In this document: positions 8,302-16,813 of the stretch, piece by piece | How positions within the stretch are numbered: position 1 is the first letter of the stretch | Layout of the letters: every line of letters begins with the position of its first letter | DNA from: an uncultured Phycisphaerales bacterium | Lineage (GTDB): Bacteria > Planctomycetota > Phycisphaerae > Sedimentisphaerales > Anaerobacaceae | NCBI GenBank assembly: GCA_963718665.1 | Contig: OY970359.1 | Location: 832,001 to 896,000 of the forward strand | Direction of reading: 5' to 3' | DNA length: 64,000 nt | The notes under the pieces: model-generated | Told to the model about the DNA's origin: nothing | What the model saw: only the letters and a program-made list of their open reading frames with translations | The model's database searches: none | Position numbers and translations under genes: made by a program

Positions 8302-8688
8302 TTAAACTACCTCGCTTGCCAGCGAGATTATCTTCATATAGTTCTTTTCACGAAGCTCACGGGCAACCGCTCCGAAAATACGGGTGCCTATCGGGTTGCC
8401 TTCGGCGTCAATCATAACCGCCGCGTTGGTATCGAACCGCACGTAACCCCCGTCGGGACGCCTTATCGGCTGCTTGGTGCGGACGATCACGCACTTGTGA
8501 ACCTTCTTGTTATCGAGCTGGCAGGTGGGCAACCACTTCTTTATCGCCACACACACGATGTCCCCGACACTCGCTACCGCACGCGTGAACTTGCCCCTGG
8601 CGCCGCTCTTGCCTAAAACCCTGATGCACTGTGCTACCTTTGCACCAGAGTTGTCGGCTATATTCAACATTGTTTCTTGTTGTATCAT
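8302..8688 (-). CDS. rplN: 50S ribosomal protein L14
   Basis: [30 protein letters not shown]; start at ATG 8688. Confidence 0.97.
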
Positions 8689-8702
8689 CTTTTGCTTTCC
8701 AT

Positions 8703-8975
8703 CTATTGTTGCGGCAGTTCCTGGGCCGCTTTCGTTATAATGCGCACGAGGCGCCACCTTTTAGTTTTGCTGTACGGCCTGCACCCGGTAACTTCAACCA
8801 CGTCACCCACGCTGGCAGCATTTTGCTCATCGTGAACAGCCATCCGGGTCTGCCTCTTGAGCGTCTTGCCATACTTAGGATGCCTGTACACATAATCTAC
8901 GGCAACCCTTATGGTCTTGCTGCTGCCCTTGCTTATCACTACCGCTTTTGTCGTTTTTACCTTGTGTTCCTGCAT
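8703..8975 (-). CDS. rpsQ: 30S ribosomal protein S17
   Basis: [28 protein letters not shown]. Confidence 0.96.
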
Positions 8976-8999
8976 CCTTCTGATTCCTTACCGGAGGCC

Positions 9000-9203
9000 T
9001 TATTGTTTTTTGGCCTCTATTTGACGCTGACGTAATACCGTCTTTATCCTCGCTACCTCACGACGTGCGTTAATTGCCGCCCGGCAATCCTGCAGCTTTT
9101 CTGTCGTCGCCTGCGAACGCAAATCAAACACGTGCCGCTGCAATTCCTGCACTTTGCTCTCAAGCTCATCCGTACTCATTTCACGATAAACTTGTGCTTT
9201 CAT
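9000..9203 (-). CDS. rpmC: 50S ribosomal protein L29
   Basis: MKAQVYREMSTDEL...RREVARIKTVL; position between rplP and rpsQ. Confidence 0.94.
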   Translation of the reverse strand: MKAQVYREMSTDELESKVQELQRHVFDLRSQATTEKLQDCRAAINARREVARIKTVLRQRQIEAKKQ

Positions 9204-9213
9204 CTGTTTACCC

Positions 9214-9636
9214 TTATCCAACCGTGCGTCTGCGACGGATTAACCTGCATTTCATCGGCATCTTGTGCGCCACACGCAACAACGCCCGTTTAGCAACTTC
9301 CTCGCCAATACCGCTGACTTCAAACAAAACCGCGCCTGGTCTGACTCGCGCCACCCAGAACGCCGGCTCACCTTTACCTTTACCCATTCGCGTCTCAAGC
9401 GGCTTGGCGCTTACCGGCTTGGCTGGGAATACCCTGATATAAACTTTACCTTCACGCTGTAGATAATGTGTCGCTGCGACTCGGCCGGCCTCTATTGTCT
9501 TGCCTTCGAGCCAGCACTGTTCCAGCGACTGCAAACCGTATTCGCCGAACGCAACATAATTCGCCCTGGCAGCGTTGCATTTCATCTTACCACGCTGGCT
9601 CTTACGGTATTTCACTCTTTTCGGCATCAATGCCAT
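9214..9636 (-). CDS. rplP: 50S ribosomal protein L16
   Basis: LMPKRVKYRKSQRG, ETRMGKGKGEP. Confidence 0.98.
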   Translation of the reverse strand: MALMPKRVKYRKSQRGKMKCNAARANYVAFGEYGLQSLEQCWLEGKTIEAGRVAATHYLQREGKVYIRVFPAKPVSAKPLETRMGKGKGEPAFWVARVRPGAVLFEVSGIGEEVAKRALLRVAHKMPMKCRLIRRRRTVG

Positions 9637-9696
9637 TTTGTAAACCCTACGTTAAAACCTAAATATCAAATCTTTAAAATTACGTATCTTAAACCG

Positions 9697-10485
9697 TTAA
9701 CCTGCCTGAGGACTTCCATCTTCAGTCGGCGCCGCACCGGTATCCGCCGGTGGACGGCTCGCCTGTCTCGGCCTGCTCGAACCTTCGCCGCCGCCCTCGC
9801 CGCGACCGAACGGCTTGCGCCTCGGCGCCTGTTTGACAACAATCGCCTCGCCAAAAAGACCGCGATGCACCCACACCTTGATACCTATCGTCCCGTATGT
9901 CGTCTCGGCACGGGCCTGAGCATAATCAACATCCGCGTCCAGAGTGTGAAGCGGGATACTTCCCTTCCTCTGCGTCTCACGCCGGGCTATTTCGGCTCCG
10001 CCTAATCGGCCTGAGCACAGAATCTTCACGCCCTTCGCGCCGGCGTTCATCGCCGACTCGCAGAACTGCTTCATCGTGCGCCTGAATGACGCCCGTTTGC
10101 AAAGCTGCTCAGCAACCGCCTCGCCAATCAAAAACGCATTCAGGTCCGGGTCTTTAACTTCAACAACGTTGACTGTAACCTTGCGGCCAGTCAACGCTTC
10201 TATTTCTTCACGCAGCTTGTCAACCTCGCCGCCTCGCGGGCCGATTACCACGCCAGGCCTTGCGCTGTGCAGCGTTACTGTTACCTCATTGCGGGTCCTT
10301 ATGATTTCCGTCTTCGCTACGCCGCCCTTGGGCATCTGCCGGTTGAATTTCTTGTCGATGAACTTGCGAATTTTCTGATCCTCAACAAGAAACGTCCCGT
10401 AGTCCGCTTTCGACGCAAACCACGTGCTGTCCCAGCCCCTAGTTATGCCTGTCCTAAAACCTATTGGCGATACCTTCTGACCCAT
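9697..10485 (-). CDS. rpsC: 30S ribosomal protein S3 (low-complexity C-terminal tail)
   Basis: MGQKVSPIGFR, ARPGVVIG KH domain, SGRLGGAEIAR, TYGTIGIKVW. Confidence 0.98.
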   Translation of the reverse strand: MGQKVSPIGFRTGITRGWDSTWFASKADYGTFLVEDQKIRKFIDKKFNRQMPKGGVAKTEIIRTRNEVTVTLHSARPGVVIGPRGGEVDKLREEIEALTGRKVTVNVVEVKDPDLNAFLIGEAVAEQLCKRASFRRTMKQFCESAMNAGAKGVKILCSGRLGGAEIARRETQRKGSIPLHTLDADVDYAQARAETTYGTIGIKVWVHRGLFGEAIVVKQAPRRKPFGRGEGGGEGSSRPRQASRPPADTGAAPTEDGSPQAG

Positions 10486-10511
10486 AGTTTAATTCGCCTT
10501 TAAATCTGCCC

Positions 10512-11060
10512 TTATGGCTGCGAAACCGTAATATATATATGACAACCTTTTTTAGTGAGAGAATGAGCTCTGCCTCTGTCCTTGGCTATCCATCGCTTGG
10601 TGCCGATCCTGACACCCGCGTCATCCACACGCGCCTCACTTATGTAAAGATTATCCACGTCTGCTTCCTGCTCATCCGCGTCGGCTATCGCCGCGCGAAG
10701 CGTCTTGCTTATCATTTCCGCGGCACGCTTCCGCGTGAACTTCAAAATATCCAGCGCGTCCTGCACCTTCCGGCCCGCTATCAACTGCGTAACCAGCCGT
10801 GCCTTGCGCGGTGCAAACGGTGCGTATCGGCAGGTTGAACACCAACCGGCAATATCATTCGGCTCAACTCCCAGCGCCGTCGCCAGACGCTTTACGTCTT
10901 CGCTGCTGGGTATCGGCTTGAATAAACCGTGCTGCCAGTTCTTTACAGCCGATATCGCGTCCTGCTTATCAAGCCCCGCCCTTACAATCTGGCCGCCCAA
11001 TTGCTCCACGCTAATCTTACGCTGCTTACTGATTTTTTTTAATTTTTCCGGGTTCAACAT
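10512..11060 (-). CDS. rplV: 50S ribosomal protein L22 with N-terminal XRE/Cro-like HTH domain
   Basis: C-terminal ~110 aa are L22 (PRKARLV..LIAGRKVQDAL, RGRA...HIYITV); N-terminal ~70 aa fit the XRE HTH pattern; position between rpsS and rpsC. Confidence 0.92.
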   Translation of the reverse strand: MLNPEKLKKISKQRKISVEQLGGQIVRAGLDKQDAISAVKNWQHGLFKPIPSSEDVKRLATALGVEPNDIAGWCSTCRYAPFAPRKARLVTQLIAGRKVQDALDILKFTRKRAAEMISKTLRAAIADADEQEADVDNLYISEARVDDAGVRIGTKRWIAKDRGRAHSLTKKGCHIYITVSQP

Positions 11061-11074
11061 ATCTATTCAAAACC

Positions 11075-11371
11075 TTACTCTCTAGCCGGTGCTGCCGTCT
11101 CTTCTTCTACCTTCCTTGTTGAATGTCCTCTGAATACCCTGGTCGGCGAAAATTCCCCGAGCTTATGACCAACCATATCCTCGGTAACGTAAACTTTGTG
11201 GAACATTTTGCCGTTATGCACCATAAATGTATAACCAATGAATTCCGGAATTATCGTGCACCTTCGTGCCCAGGTCTTTATCGGCTCGCGTAACCCGGTC
11301 TGTATCTGCTTGTTGACCTTCGCAAACAGTTTCACGTCAACATACGGTCCTTTTTTCAGCGATCTTCCCAT
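11075..11371 (-). CDS. rpsS: 30S ribosomal protein S19
   Basis: [25 protein letters not shown]. Confidence 0.98.
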
Positions 11372-11417
11372 TCGATTTCCTCAGGCCGGTCAACCGGCCT
11401 CGATAACATCCTTCCCA

Positions 11418-12269
11418 TCAAATTTCCACTTGTCCATGCGCGCTGCTCTTGCGTCTCCGGATAATTCGCTGGCTGCTGACTTTTCTCGGGCATCTTGTTT
11501 TTCCGCCCTTTGCCAGCACGCCGGTCGGTGAGCAGGGATGACGTCCGCCGTTGCTCCTGCCTTCGCCGCCGCCCATCGGATGCGCTACCGGGTTCTGTGC
11601 CTTGCCGCGAACGTGGCCTCTGCGGCCTTTATGTCTTGTCCGCCCCGCCTTGCCCCACCGGATATTCTGGTAGTCGGAATTGCCCAGCTTGCCTATCGTC
11701 GCGCGACATTCTTTGCGCACCATTCTCATTTCACCGCTGGGCAGTTGAAGCGTTACCCAGTCGCCTTCTTTCGCTATTATTCTCGCCGCCGAGCCGGCAA
11801 CACGCACTAACTTGCCGCCCTGGCCGGCTGTCATTTCAATATTATGAACTTCAAGACCGCTCGGAATTGCCTCTAACGGCATCGCGTTGCCGACTTTCGG
11901 CTCGCAAACCATACCGCTCTCGACTTTATCGCCCATTTTAATGCCTTCCGGGGCCAGTATGTATCGTTTTTCGCCGTCAACGTAGTGCAGCAATGATATA
12001 TAACAATTCCTGTTCGGGTCATATTCCACGCTTGCTACGTTCGCGCTGACGCCGTCTTTGTTCCTCTTAAAATCAATGAGGCGGTAAATCTGCCTCGCAC
12101 CGCCTCCTCTGAACCGAACCATAGTCATACCACTGTGGTTTCTGCCGCCTGATTTCTTTATGCGAATACACAGGGACTTTTCCGGCCTGTCAGTGGTCAG
12201 CTCGGCAAAATCATTTACTGAGCTGTTCCTGCGTCCTGCGCTTGTCGGCTTGTATATTTTAATTCCCAT
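11418..12269 (-). CDS. rplB: 50S ribosomal protein L2
   Basis: EYDPNR, GEKRYILAP, GKAGR, NPVAHPMGGGEG. Confidence 0.98.
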   Translation of the reverse strand: MGIKIYKPTSAGRRNSSVNDFAELTTDRPEKSLCIRIKKSGGRNHSGMTMVRFRGGGARQIYRLIDFKRNKDGVSANVASVEYDPNRNCYISLLHYVDGEKRYILAPEGIKMGDKVESGMVCEPKVGNAMPLEAIPSGLEVHNIEMTAGQGGKLVRVAGSAARIIAKEGDWVTLQLPSGEMRMVRKECRATIGKLGNSDYQNIRWGKAGRTRHKGRRGHVRGKAQNPVAHPMGGGEGRSNGGRHPCSPTGVLAKGGKTRCPRKVSSQRIIRRRKSSAHGQVEI

Positions 12270-12291
12270 ATTGCTTCTCTTGCTCTCTTTA

Positions 12292-12570
12292 TTAGAACAG
12301 GTCGATATGATAATCGGGTTTCAGGTACACCACGGCCTTTTTCCAGTCCTGCGTGAAACCCGACGTCCTGCCCTTGCGTCTGAACTTCCCTTTTCTGTTC
12401 GCGGTCCTCACCTTGTCAACCTTAACTGCGTACAGCCGCTCAACAGCGCCTCTAATCTGCATCTTGTTGGCGTCCTTGTTCACTTCGAACGCGTACGCGC
12501 TTATTTTACCTGCAAGGTGCGTACCCTGCTCTGTAATCAACGGTTTAACTATAATATTATGGTCTTTCAT
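12292..12570 (-). CDS. rplW: 50S ribosomal protein L23
   Basis: KPLITE, ANKMQIRGAVE, WKKAVV. Confidence 0.96.
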   Translation of the reverse strand: MKDHNIIVKPLITEQGTHLAGKISAYAFEVNKDANKMQIRGAVERLYAVKVDKVRTANRKGKFRRKGRTSGFTQDWKKAVVYLKPDYHIDLF

Positions 12571-12581
12571 AACGCCGGCAG

Positions 12582-13217
12582 TTAATTCTCACCTGATTCA
12601 TTCTTGTTCACAAGAGACAGAAACGCCTCTTTGGTAAACAACAGTTTTGTATGTCTGCAAATATCCCCCGCGTTTGATTCCGCCGCCAGGAGCACCGACA
12701 CCTTCGGTATATTTCTCGCTGAGCGCCAAAGCGTATCGTTGTGCTCACCGATTATCACAAGACAACTGCGTTCTATTTTAAGATTCCCGAGTATATTCGC
12801 GAAATCCTTTGTCTTCGGCTTCTCAAACGCAAGCTGGTCAACAACAACAACATTATTGCTCAAAAGCTTCGACAGTATCGCCGAATCTCTCGCTAATTTC
12901 TTCTGCTTTTTGGGCATGTCCTGACTGAAATCCCTCGCTTTTTTCGCGAATGTTACACCGCCGCCGACTCTTTTAGCCGTCCTGATTGTGCCGGCCCTGG
13001 CGTTACCGGTATGCTTCTGTGCGTATATCTTGCGGGTCGAACCTTCAATCTGCCCCCTGCCTTTTGTCGCCGCAGTGCCCACCCGTTTGTTCGCGTTGTA
13101 CATTACTATTGCCTGCTTCAGCAATGCGTATCTCACGCGCCCGCCGAACGCCGACTCTGCGACCTTCAGGCTGCCAACCTCTTTACCGCTCTTATCATAT
13201 ACAGGCAAGCTTATCAT
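12582..13217 (-). CDS. rplD: 50S ribosomal protein L4
   Basis: GTAATKGRG, QKHTGNARAG, SARNIP. Confidence 0.97.
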   Translation of the reverse strand: MISLPVYDKSGKEVGSLKVAESAFGGRVRYALLKQAIVMYNANKRVGTAATKGRGQIEGSTRKIYAQKHTGNARAGTIRTAKRVGGGVTFAKKARDFSQDMPKKQKKLARDSAILSKLLSNNVVVVDQLAFEKPKTKDFANILGNLKIERSCLVIIGEHNDTLWRSARNIPKVSVLLAAESNAGDICRHTKLLFTKEAFLSLVNKNESGEN

Positions 13218-13238
13218 CTGCTAATCCCTGTGCCCAAC

Positions 13239-13892
13239 CTATACTTTATTCTTCTGTGAAGTTCTAACTACAACATAACCGCCCGAAGGCCCGGGTACTG
13301 AACCTTTTACTACGAGCAGATTATTTTCCGGATCTATTGAAACAAGCTGATGTGTTTTGACTGTGATTCTCTTGGCCCCCATGTGTCCGCCCATCTTTTT
13401 ACCCTTCTTTATGTCACCACCGTGACCACGGTCGGTTCCATAACCCGCCTGCGAACCCGGCGAACGGTGCTTGCGTTCTGTGCCGTGCGAACCAGGCATG
13501 CCGCCGAAATGGTGTCGCTTCATCGGGCCTGCGAATCCCTTGCCTTTGCTCGTCCCGATGACATCGACGAATTTCGTTTCCGCGAATGTCGTTACCGTTA
13601 CAGCGTCGCCCGGATTCACTTCCGCTTTCGCATCGCCGATAAGACGCATTTCCCTGATAAATCTCTTCGGGGCAGTCTTGGCCTTCTCAGCGTGTGCAAT
13701 CGCGGCCTTGGTGCTGCGCGACGCTTTCACGTCGTCAAACCCGAGCTGAACCGCGTTATAGCCGTCTGTCTCAACGGTCTTTACCTGCATAACGACACAG
13801 GGGCCGGCCTGTATGACCGTAACGGGCAACAGCCGTTCCTTCTCATCGTAAACCTGCGTCATTCCAACTTTTTTTCCAAGCAGCATTGCCAC
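13239..13892 (-). CDS. rplC: 50S ribosomal protein L3
   Basis: LGKKVGMTQ, DGYNAVQLG, SKGKGFAG, KGSVPG. Confidence 0.98.
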   Translation of the reverse strand: MAMLLGKKVGMTQVYDEKERLLPVTVIQAGPCVVMQVKTVETDGYNAVQLGFDDVKASRSTKAAIAHAEKAKTAPKRFIREMRLIGDAKAEVNPGDAVTVTTFAETKFVDVIGTSKGKGFAGPMKRHHFGGMPGSHGTERKHRSPGSQAGYGTDRGHGGDIKKGKKMGGHMGAKRITVKTHQLVSIDPENNLLVVKGSVPGPSGGYVVVRTSQKNKV

Positions 13893-13922
13893 TTTTATCT
13901 TCCCTGTTACTGACCTGCTTTA

Positions 13923-14237
13923 TTATGCCTTGATTTTTACGAAAACACCGGCAGGCACAACCAGCCGGTTAAGAACTTCAACCGTCCGTGCATTCGCCTC
14001 GCGAATATCAATCAGACGCTTGTGCGTTCGCAACTCAAATTGTTCACGTGATTTCTTGTCGATATGCGGGCTTCTCAGCACGGTGTATCTTTCGATACGT
14101 GTCGGCAGGGGAATGGGGCCGCTGATACGAGCATTGGTCCTTCTGGCGTGTTCCACTATTTCCTTTGCGGATGCATCCAGAATCCTGTGGTCGTATGCTT
14201 CCATCCTTATTTTTATTCTTTCTGTTTCACCGGCCAT
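13923..14237 (-). CDS. rpsJ: 30S ribosomal protein S10
   Basis: [21 protein letters not shown]. Confidence 0.98.
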
Positions 14238-14660
14238 AATACTGTGCCTAAATTCTTAGTATTGTTACAACCTGTTTTTTCACACCTTTGACCGCGACTA
14301 CTACACTTCTGCTGTCACTGCACCGACAAAAACACCCCTGCGGTTTCAGCGCTCTATCATGCCTTCTTGGCAGGAAGGACCTGATTTGGTCATCAAACGC
14401 CCGCGGTCACAGGCATCCGACGCCACAATCGCCTTCCTTAACGAATCGGGGTTCTAATCCTTTTGGACAAAGCTGCCTGGCCCTCAGCCGACAACTCATC
14501 CCAGCTCTTACGGGGTTTATTGGCAACCCCTGCTGTACCCCTTAATTAAACCAATCAACCAATCAAACCGTCCTTGACGACCACGATTCGCAAGACGTGT
14601 TACAGCCCAACTCGTCAATCGCAAAGCCATCCCTGGCGATGCTCGCTACGGCTGAAAGAT
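14238..14660 (-). ncRNA. candidate long structured 5' leader of the S10 operon
   Basis: No credible ORF; several nested inverted repeats (14289-96/14402-09, 14512-17/14525-30, 14574-80/14612-18, 14566-71/14648-53) between promoter and rpsJ. Confidence 0.55.
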
Positions 14661-14664
14661 TAGC

Positions 14665-14693
14665 AATTTAACATACAGCCCGACTTACGTCAA
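14665..14693 (-). promoter_or_regulatory. sigma70-type promoter for S10 operon
   Basis: TTGACG-17 nt-TAAATT with extended -10 TG and AT-rich upstream tract. Confidence 0.75.
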
Positions 14694-14734
14694 CCAGCAA
14701 ATTACAAAAATTTTTCAAAGAAATTAATATTTTT

Positions 14735-16813
14735 TTACAGCGATATAACCTGTTCAGCAATCTGTTCGGGCACTTTCTCGTAACTTAAGGGCTCCATCGT
14801 AAACGTGCCTCGACCGGCTGTCGCGCTTCTTATCTCGCTGGAATACCCGAACATCTCGGACAACGGGACTTTAGCGTCAATTGTCCGCGTTTTTCCGTGA
14901 ATCCTGCTGTCTGTGATAAATCCCCTCTTGGAAAGCAAGCTGGCCTGGATAACCCCGAAATGGGCCTCCGGAACAATAACCTCAATCTTCATAACCGGCT
15001 CCAAAAGTATCGGGCCGGCCTTCTCGAGGGCCGCCTTAATCGCAATCGCCGCCGCCTGCTCAAATGCAATATCCGATGAATCCACAGTATGATATGAGCC
15101 GTCAATTAACGTAACTTTAATCCCCATAACGGGATAGCCCGCTAAAGTGCCTGTCCCAAGGGCATCTTCAACCCCCTTCTCGACAGCCCCGACATACTCT
15201 CTGGGCACCCTGTCTCCACCTGCCTCATTGATAAACTCCATCTCCCTGCTCAAGTGTCCGTCTTCGCCAAATAATGGCTCAACCTTCAAAACAACATGCC
15301 CATATTGCCCCCTTCCCCCAGTTTGACGCACAAACTTGCCTTCCGATTCGGCTTGTTTGGTAATCGCCTCTTTATATGCCACACGAGGCCTGCCAACCTT
15401 GATATCTACCCCTTTTTCCTTCATCAGCTTGTGCTGCAGAATCTCAAGATGAAGCTCGCCCATACCGCTGATAATCATTTGGCCGGTTTCGTGGTCAACC
15501 TTCGATTCAAAAGTCGGGTCTTCCCGCCGCAATGCTGCAAGGGCGTCGCCCAGCTTATTTTTATCGCCGGCCGTCTTCGGCTCTATCGACATACTTATTA
15601 CCGTCTGCGGGAAAGTAATGCTGGCAAGCAGCACCGGATGTTTCGGGTCGCTAAGCGTGTCGCCCGTAATTGTATGTTTAGGTCCAACCACAGCCACTAT
15701 GTCACCTGCATGGGCCTCTTCGAGAATTTTGCGGTCGTTGGCGTGCATCTCAAACATTCGCGTGATATTTTCCCGCTTGTCGCGAGTAACATTGAGCACC
15801 CTGCTGCCCGACTTCAATGTCCCCTGGTATATCCTTATGAAATTCAGGTCCCCGTGCGGCTCACTGATAATCTTAAAGGCAAGAGCCACTAAACTGCCTT
15901 TCGGGTCGCACTTGACCGGGATTTTCTTTTCCTCGTCGCCGGGCGCATGGGCGATAATCGGCGGTTTTTCCATCGGCGAAGGTAAATATGCCACAACCCC
16001 GTCCAGCAGCTTCTGAATGCCGATATACTGCAAAGCAGACCCGCAAAACACAGGGTGCAGCTTGCCGGCAATTGTCCCCTTCCTTATCGCCCTGTGAATC
16101 AGCTCCTCCTCAATGGGCTTGTCGTGAACGTATTTATCCATCATTTCTTCATCATGCTCAGCCGCGTGCTCAAGCAGCGTATGCCTGGCCTGCTCCACTT
16201 TGCTGTGGTACTCCGCGGGAATCTCGACCTCCTCGAAATCAGCCCCCAGCTTTTTCGTGTCGAAAATAACCGCGTGCATCTTGATTAAATCTATAACCCC
16301 GGTAAAAGTGTCTGAAGCCCCTATTGGAAGCTGTACAACAAGGGGATTGGCAACAAGTTTTTCTCTGATGCTGTCAATGCTCATTTCAAAATCAGCACCG
16401 ACCTTGTCCATTTTGTTGATAAAGCAAAGGCAGGGCACGCCGTATTTCTGTCCCTGTCTCCAGACCGTCTCGCTCTGCGCCTGCACGCCTTCACTGCCAT
16501 CAAAAACAATCACGGCCCCGTCAAGCACTCTCAACGACCTTTCCACTTCCGCCGTAAAATCAATGTGTCCCGGCGTATCAATAAGGTTGACTTCCGCCCC
16601 GGCCCACGGGAATCTTGTCGCCGCCGACGTAATGGTTATCCCTCTTTTTTGCTCTTCTTCGAGGTAGTCCATCACCGCCGTGCCGTCGTGAACCTCGCCC
16701 ATTTTGTAGGTCTTGCCAGCATAATAAAGAACTCGCTCAGACACCGTCGTTTTGCCTGCGTCAATATGAGCGATAATGCCTATATTGCGTATTTTCTTAA
16801 GCTCTTCTAACAT
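14735..16813 (-). CDS. fusA: elongation factor G
   Basis: AHIDAGKTT, RGITI, DTPGH, NKMD, GMGELHL, QTGGRGQYGH. Confidence 0.98.
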   Translation of the reverse strand: MLEELKKIRNIGIIAHIDAGKTTVSERVLYYAGKTYKMGEVHDGTAVMDYLEEEQKRGITITSAATRFPWAGAEVNLIDTPGHIDFTAEVERSLRVLDGAVIVFDGSEGVQAQSETVWRQGQKYGVPCLCFINKMDKVGADFEMSIDSIREKLVANPLVVQLPIGASDTFTGVIDLIKMHAVIFDTKKLGADFEEVEIPAEYHSKVEQARHTLLEHAAEHDEEMMDKYVHDKPIEEELIHRAIRKGTIAGKLHPVFCGSALQYIGIQKLLDGVVAYLPSPMEKPPIIAHAPGDEEKKIPVKCDPKGSLVALAFKIISEPHGDLNFIRIYQGTLKSGSRVLNVTRDKRENITRMFEMHANDRKILEEAHAGDIVAVVGPKHTITGDTLSDPKHPVLLASITFPQTVISMSIEPKTAGDKNKLGDALAALRREDPTFESKVDHETGQMIISGMGELHLEILQHKLMKEKGVDIKVGRPRVAYKEAITKQAESEGKFVRQTGGRGQYGHVVLKVEPLFGEDGHLSREMEFINEAGGDRVPREYVGAVEKGVEDALGTGTLAGYPVMGIKVTLIDGSYHTVDSSDIAFEQAAAIAIKAALEKAGPILLEPVMKIEVIVPEAHFGVIQASLLSKRGFITDSRIHGKTRTIDAKVPLSEMFGYSSEIRSATAGRGTFTMEPLSYEKVPEQIAEQVISL

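Follow-up and report, generated by a model that had tools for sequence, protein, structure and literature searches.

The only uL22 (ribosomal protein L22) gene in the source bacterium, and throughout its order among the genomes sampled, encodes a fusion in which an additional N-terminal domain, modelled with the lambda-repressor/Cro-C1 (XRE) fold, precedes a complete uL22. The gene, rplV, lies on the minus strand at 10512..11060 of the window, that is, of the whole 64,000-nucleotide stretch of DNA that was analysed. By analogy with better known ribosomes, those of these bacteria are likely to bear a new module on their surface, next to where the nascent-protein tunnel opens. Extensions of bacterial ribosomal proteins are usually short, disordered, basic tails. 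Here, a universal tunnel-lining protein has acquired a domain that folds well on its own and is of the type commonest among bacterial repressors. A whole order, probably Sedimentisphaerales to judge from the source names of homologues, has kept it, as has another lineage, of the Phycisphaerales type. If its place is by the exit port, the docking surface for deformylase, aminopeptidase, chaperones and targeting factors would be changed, and these organisms would offer a natural case of ribosome specialisation. The domain would also be an example of an XRE fold put to a use that is not operator binding.

The rplV frame, as given in the ORF list, starts with ATG and codes for 182 amino acids, its coordinates including the stop codon. 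Residues 73-182 (10515..10844, minus strand) form the canonical uL22 core with the tunnel beta-hairpin, as judged by structural superposition and by the Pfam family PF00237 (Ribosomal_L22), which matches residues 78-179 at 93.6 bits against a cut-off of 28 (E 1e-26). The bacterial model TIGR01044 (rplV_bact) scores 89.3 bits against a cut-off of 73.65. Residues 1-72 (10845..11060, minus strand) form the XRE-fold domain, which was delimited by AlphaFold2 prediction, structure matches and conservation. Modelled residues 71-182 overlay residues 1-110 of solved bacterial uL22 (Z 18.4, rmsd 1.1-1.3 Å), and thus the domain appears to be attached directly to the canonical uL22 N-terminus. Among the 50 solved uL22 chains listed, none covers the XRE domain; the longest N-terminal overlaps extend to model residue 29 or 32, with an rmsd above 3 Å.

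The order of genes on the minus strand, assigned with NCBIfam, is fusA, rpsJ, rplC, rplD, rplW, rplB, rpsS, rplV, rpsC, rplP and rpmC. The upstream neighbour, rpsS (uS19; 11075..11371, minus strand), matches TIGR01050 at 128 bits (cut-off 89.35), and the downstream neighbour, rpsC (uS3; 9697..10485, minus strand), matches TIGR01009 at 265 bits (cut-off 114.5). The uS3 product has 262 amino acids; the rpsC model stops at residue 209, and the last ~53 residues are a Gly/Pro/Arg/Ala-rich low-complexity tail. The earlier note had described rplV, without naming a strand, as a 182-aa frame at 10512..11060, with an extension of about 70 amino acids, an ATG 14 nt past the rpsS stop and no Met codon ahead of the L22 core. 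These readings agree with the present data: the ORF list holds the same single frame and translation, the core match begins at residue 78 and the modelled core at 71, the rpsS stop TAA occupies 11075-11077 and the rplV ATG 11058-11060, and codon 1 is the sole in-frame ATG ahead of the core. Besides this ATG, TTG (codons 2 and 21) and GTG (codon 18) could serve as in-frame starts there. The hexamer TAAGGT (11072..11077, minus strand), made up of the rpsS stop and GGT, resembles a Shine-Dalgarno sequence and may act as one, ~11-16 nt before the rplV ATG. A survey of the upstream 40 nt at 38 loci found (T)AAGG(T) near the rplV start in many members of the order.

That the fusion is genuine, as had been supposed from the single locus, is borne out by relatives. 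When uL22 was searched for in 41 related genomes, 38 gave one match each, and the three without a match are 80-87% complete. One of the 38 matches lies at a contig edge; the other 37 run from residues 1-5 to 180-182, uninterrupted by any stop. Loci were cut from 38 fusion-bearing genomes, namely 12 of the genus, 20 of the rest of the order and six of the second lineage, a single Phycisphaerales-type family of another order (designated f19) whose uL22 is 39-43% identical. An intact, full-length frame was present at all 38. The first in-frame ATG lies 72-78 codons ahead of the start of the core alignment at the 32 order loci; in f19, all six loci have a GTG 77-85 codons ahead, preceded by a GGAG-like sequence in five. 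Two separate ORFs or an L22 of normal length in relatives would have spoken for an error, and all 32 loci cut from the order carry the intact fusion frame.

Within the genus, the median dN/dS (Nei-Gojobori; 52 of 66 pairs with usable dS) was 0.12 for the N-terminal 72 codons (range 0.03-0.23) and 0.06 for the core, by which measure the XRE domain is under purifying selection. A second sample of the same study yielded a DNA contig that is identical over positions 10388-11500. In another study, a contig assembled from a peat metagenome spans 10300-11500 with 25 substitutions and a 1-nt deletion, the latter offset 3 nt away by a 1-nt insertion. A metatranscriptome library, a type of library that may contain DNA too, gave a contig that spans 10753-11317 gap-free and covers part of the core, the entire extra domain, the spacer and part of rpsS. 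Public gene calls for the GTG-started f19 type come out at 122, 138, 177 and 184 amino acids inside one 90% cluster (that of P0169; loci L033-L038), and the 122-aa call carries the NCBI name L22. Because some of these calls start inside the gene, the XRE domain is sometimes dropped from annotation in this GC-rich lineage, a problem that deserves flagging.

AlphaFold2, supplied with 28 orthologues, modelled residues 1-74 with a pLDDT of 93.6 and a pTM of 0.81, and the whole fused protein with values of 89.0 and 0.78. The helices of the domain are placed at residues 4-13, 18-24, 32-43, 53-63 and 67-70, with a loop at 25-31. A VIA-align comparison with 48,161 PDB representatives gave 22 chains at Z of at least 8, the best being the controller protein C.Csp231I (3lfp_A; Z 10.1, rmsd 2.1 Å over 68 residues), followed by matches at 9.5 and 9.4. 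The matches listed are of the lambda-repressor/Cro-C1 type and comprise regulators, the helical domains of HEPD, HppE and MPnS, cyanase and MBF1/EDF1; one Toxoplasma mitoribosomal protein is also among them, at Z 7.4. Foldseek puts the same kind of protein on top (best E 0.015, TM 0.60-0.74) and returned nothing for the XRE domain at E <= 1e-3. A search of the ESM Atlas returned solely a cluster of the protein's own kind (score 0.75). As modelled, residues 1-72 are of the lambda-repressor/Cro-C1 fold.

The match in sequence is weak. The protein of the window scores 19.8-20.7 bits against HTH_19 (cut-off 30.2) and 13.8-16.9 against HTH_3 (cut-off 23). At E <= 0.1, HTH_31 matched 17, HTH_19 14 and HTH_3 13 of the 28 orthologues, with best E-values of 1.2e-6 (HTH_31) and 3.9e-6 (HTH_3); beyond generic HTH families, no Pfam family recurs across the 28. 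The precomputed family PF12844 is present on 7 of the 120 homologues listed, so that its pairing with PF00237 already stands in automated Pfam tables. Thus, the XRE pattern that the earlier note had recognized is upheld as a fold by AlphaFold2 and VIA-align, but as a sequence match it stays below the Pfam cut-offs here. The two checks named there for the extension parted in the same way: the structure prediction spoke for it (Z 10.1) and the HTH_3 score (13.8-16.9 against 23) did not. The few extra residues reported in the turn are evident both in the HTH_19 alignment, where 66 domain residues fall on 57 profile positions, and in the model, where a seven-residue loop (25-31) links helices 2 and 3. 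Among the 28 orthologues this loop varies from ~5 to 14 residues (-2 to +7). Since the curated cut-offs are missed and the short fixed turn is absent, the domain is termed XRE-like and is not filed as a member of HTH_3 or HTH_19.

Across the 28 orthologues, N41 and W42 never vary, A38, P49 and A60 hardly do, and the motif W-x-x-G-x-x-x-P is kept after helix 3. The share of sequences with a basic residue is 89% at position 6, 93% at 40, 68% at 44 and 75% at 48, and the conserved basic patch of the domain consists of K6, K40, N41, K/R44 and K48. The start of helix 3 (positions 32-37) is variable and often acidic. The net charge of the domain has a median of +4 and ranges from -3 to +9, with four of the 28 at or below 0.

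Each of 121 genomes of the class gave exactly one uL22 match. The fusion is full-length in the source genome and 16 other genomes of the order (17/17) and in 6/6 of f19. The remaining 98 have a uL22 match that starts at query residue 38-78, and the fusion is found in none of them (0/98); the 14 that were inspected have an ATG 5-8 codons ahead of the core alignment, as in a normal uL22. A profile of the domain alone matched 14 of 301 genomes of the phylum at E <= 1e-5, namely the source genome, 8/8 of the order and 5/5 of f19, each with one match that always precedes L22. The other 287 gave no match at E <= 1e-5, and no free-standing paralogue of the domain was found at that threshold in the 14. 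The Planctomycetota-wide survey of rplV length that had been proposed was therefore too broad in scope, the fusion being limited to two lineages of one class. Public homologues at 69-80% identity bear the names Sedimentisphaerales or Planctomycetota. With a single f19 protein as query, the f19 type was found in 23 records titled Phycisphaerales, Phycisphaeraceae, Phycisphaerae or Planctomycetota and in one titled 'uncultured bacterium'; the match starts within the first six residues of the query in 20.

When the L22 cores (42 rows) are placed in a maximum-likelihood tree, the order forms one clade (95/87) and f19 groups with the fusion-free families f15 and f21 (91/92). The fusion-free families f9, f11 and f18 stand nearer the order, on deep branches that are weak (57/27). 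The length pattern of the 23S rRNA agrees with this tree, f11 being like the order and f15 like f19, and the two together indicate that the whole gene was not moved between the order and f19. The domain may be ancestral, with several losses, or may have been transferred as a module between lineages. To look for a donor, 1.84 billion representatives were searched with the domain profile; of the 132 matches at E <= 1e-3, ten were read and the other 122 were assessed through length and match position only. The ten comprised six tandem multi-XRE proteins and four L22-linked sequences, some of them broken or chimeric, and held no close free-standing donor or relative. The six (P0121, P0142, P0146, P0157, P0158 and P0168; 448-1927 aa, with 4-10 tandem XRE-type repeats) were the strongest matches outside L22; tandem proteins of this kind score high because their repeats are summed. 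In P0158, the repeats have a long insertion between helices 2 and 3 that is reminiscent of the uL22 domain. No description of an L22-HTH fusion was found in the literature outside subscription journals. The uL22-XRE fusion belongs to the lineage-specific extensions of ribosomal proteins.

On balance, the domain is best regarded as a permanent, ribosome-bound surface module by the tunnel exit, a reading that we hold to be somewhat better than an even chance, and it is unlikely to be a sequence-specific DNA-binding repressor. Since the fused protein is the only uL22 of the genome, it must presumably serve in the ribosome, and it would thus be incorporated into the 50S subunit. In the 50S subunit, where uL22 is essential, its globular part is on the surface beside the tunnel exit, so that the domain would be carried on the surface of every ribosome of these organisms. 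The surface-exposed globular part of uL22 forms, with bL32 and rRNA, a groove by the exit for the C-terminal helix of peptide deformylase (bioRxiv 10.1101/2022.04.20.488877). The C-terminal extension of the spinach-type chloroplast uL22c, together with extensions of uL13c and bL21c, is described as forming a surface domain beside the exit tunnel (bioRxiv 10.64898/2026.07.03.736309; PMC5694952). By analogy, both precedents place the domain on the exit-side surface; this position and its contacts there are a proposal. The conserved basic patch (K6, K40, N41, K/R44 and K48) would hold it on the backbone of 23S rRNA or on neighbouring proteins, and it would thereby alter or extend the platform round the exit port. 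Judged from the alignment, such conservation is more in keeping with a fixed contact, to a backbone or to a protein, than with a conserved operator, although the basic residues after helix 3 fit contacts with a DNA backbone as well as with rRNA. Of the two functions that the earlier note had offered, a regulator of transcription and a surface module, the evidence leans to the latter, because there is only one uL22, no free-standing paralogue of the domain was found in the 14 matched genomes, the loop and the start of helix 3 are variable, and no palindromic operator was seen upstream of rpsJ.

The 23S rRNA genes of ten genomes of the class, six with and four without the fusion, were aligned to E. 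coli rrlH. Ten regions differ in length by at least 6 nt, and none of these indels tracks the fusion, including the region of E. coli 2780-2813, which was examined in view of what is described for chloroplast H98. As no 23S indel of this size goes with the fusion, no rRNA partner or compensated loss stands out. bL32 (PF01783), trigger factor (TIGR00115) and peptide deformylase (PF01327) are present in all of five genomes, three with the fusion (G000, G031 and G085) and two without (G131 and G047), so that a missing neighbour does not explain it. A complex prediction of the domain (1-72) against the core (75-182), run without controls, returned a score of 0.00 and a mark of 0.32 and is evidence neither way.

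The 23S rRNA genes have peculiarities of their own. That of the source genome (L076, on G000 contig 1 at 2559721-2562784; also L078) is 3064 nt long, with 104 nt in place of 39 at E. coli 1711-1749 and 81 nt in place of 43 at 263-305. The relative G031 has a 307-nt insert at E. coli 1857-1874, and in the f19 genomes the gene is reduced to 2734 nt. The uL22 core of the order also carries an insertion of three residues in the ascending strand of the tunnel hairpin (10599..10619, minus strand; residues 148-154), reading AG-x-R-x-GTKR for GP-x-IKR, in 24/24 sequences of the order and 0/18 others, f19 included. It directly precedes what we take to be the equivalent of the Met-Lys-Arg triplet of E. 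coli uL22, the deletion of which confers erythromycin resistance. By its place next to this triplet, the insertion may change the tunnel constriction.

A related but rather unlikely alternative keeps the domain on the ribosome and lets it work through protein-protein contacts, by recruiting or repositioning a nascent-chain factor at the exit port. Such a factor could be a processing enzyme, a chaperone, or a targeting or membrane-anchoring factor, either lineage-specific or general. XRE folds do serve as non-DNA modules, as in HEPD, HppE, MPnS and cyanase. Among solved structures, the domain profile comes closest in sequence to the N-terminal HTH of ShTniQ (E 6e-4, residues 22-72). In the solved transposon recruitment complex, this HTH binds a TnsC protomer and not DNA (PMC9798831), a precedent for use in protein binding. 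uL22 also helps to form the groove in which deformylase docks (bioRxiv 10.1101/2022.04.20.488877). However, the TniQ match is marginal, and no candidate partner emerged, deformylase, trigger factor and bL32 showing no difference in presence or absence among the five genomes.

The surface module remains preferable also to a moonlighting regulator of transcription, in which free uL22 would bind DNA through its HTH, for example at its own operon, and couple the supply of ribosomal proteins to transcription. The fold is that of DNA-binding repressors, basic residues are conserved where helix 3 ends and in the loop behind it, and a sigma-70-like promoter (~14664..14692, minus strand), recognized in an alignment of 17 upstream regions of the order, lies in the 497-nt gap between fusA and rpsJ (14238..14734). 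In repressors, however, it is the start of helix 3 that reads the bases, as in 434 and lambda-type complexes, and here this segment is variable and often acidic and is preceded by a variable loop, a combination that misfits a conserved operator. No dimerization element is evident in the domain. Inspection by eye of the 17 aligned order regions upstream of rpsJ revealed no shared palindromic operator, the conserved element there being a structured RNA, and f19, which has the fusion, has a different promoter and leader. Regulation of this kind is accordingly considered improbable.

The conserved RNA (14586..14661, minus strand) begins straight after the promoter and, with it, accounts for the gap, which holds a promoter and long leader only; there is no tuf between fusA and rpsJ, and no minus-strand ORF of at least 55 aa is listed in the gap. 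The leader has the motif CAGCCGnAGCGAGC-hairpin-GCGt..AGTTGGGCTG, with an outer stem CAGCC/GGCTG followed by an invariant AGCGAGC, the last bases of which open the inner hairpin. In 15 sequences, 85.6% of cells are paired, as against 35-44% with slid partners. Compensatory changes occur in 9 of 13 pairs, and none of 500 shuffles reached the observed covariation score. A covariance model found the leader once per genome in 17/17 of the order, in 0/6 of f19 and in 1/98 of the others, the last being marginal (E 6.9e-4). Rfam gave no match at E <= 1 at positions 8500-15000 of the window. The element is an order-specific leader of the S10 operon and may be a new ribosomal-protein leader.

Free uL22 could in principle bind this leader through its extra domain and feed back on the S10 operon. 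The covarying leader does lie at the 5' end of the operon in 17/17 genomes of the order, all with the fusion, but co-occurrence in a single clade is not independent evidence. Moreover, f19 has the fusion and upstream regions that look different, none of its six genomes being matched by the leader model; hence, the leader cannot be tied to the XRE domain. The S10 leader of E. coli is bound by uL4, the gene for which is present here. We consider RNA-binding autoregulation by uL22 very improbable, and give little credence to the wider idea that unassembled uL22 binds either the promoter DNA or the leader RNA of its own operon, although, if true, it would give a uL22-based feedback on the synthesis of ribosomal proteins such as no studied bacterium has. 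Finally, that the fusion is an artefact of a wrongly called start, of a frameshift in the assembly or of the merging of two ORFs is scarcely credible, for although public gene calls for the GC-rich f19 type disagree in length, the same intact frame and start position recur at 38/38 loci of independent assemblies, the upstream part is under purifying selection by dN/dS, and independent DNA contigs and one RNA-library contig show no frame break.

Compared with known systems, the protein is a bacterial uL22 (PF00237, TIGR01044) in its full core, its tunnel hairpin, its place in the S10 operon, with rpsS before it and rpsC after it, and its sole copy. It differs in the folded 72-residue domain before the canonical N-terminus and in the three-residue hairpin insertion of the order. 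Membership in NF008917, 'L22/unknown domain fusion', was rejected, the score being 46.1 bits against a cut-off of 526 and the match being confined to the L22 core (residues 83-180). With XRE/Cro-C1 domains (HTH_3, HTH_19 and HTH_31; C.Csp231I and P22 c2), the extra domain shares the five-helix fold, the W-x-x-G-x-x-x-P motif and weak profile matches. Those domains have a short, fixed turn between helices 2 and 3, whereas the uL22 domain has a long, variable loop and is fused to a ribosomal protein with no partner dimerization region.

MBF1/EDF1 has the same general fold, with Z 6.8-6.9 for 1x57, 2jvl and the EDF1 chain of an 80S entry, and also associates with ribosomes. Among the 50 rows listed it takes ranks 46-50, and it seems a weaker structural match than the bacterial regulators. 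MBF1 is a factor in its own right at the small subunit, whereas the uL22 domain is covalently joined to a protein of the large one. With the N-terminal HTH of the type V-K ShTniQ (7oxd), the alignment of the domain profile takes in the region of the long loop, the W...P motif and the later helices (E 6e-4). ShTniQ continues into zinc-finger domains and acts in transposition (PMC9798831); the score is marginal, and no functional link is implied. The chloroplast uL22c of spinach and other Caryophyllales is likewise a uL22 with extra sequence, which is described as forming a surface domain on the exit side. That extension is C-terminal, whereas the one described here is N-terminal, has an autonomous fold and is found in free-living bacteria.
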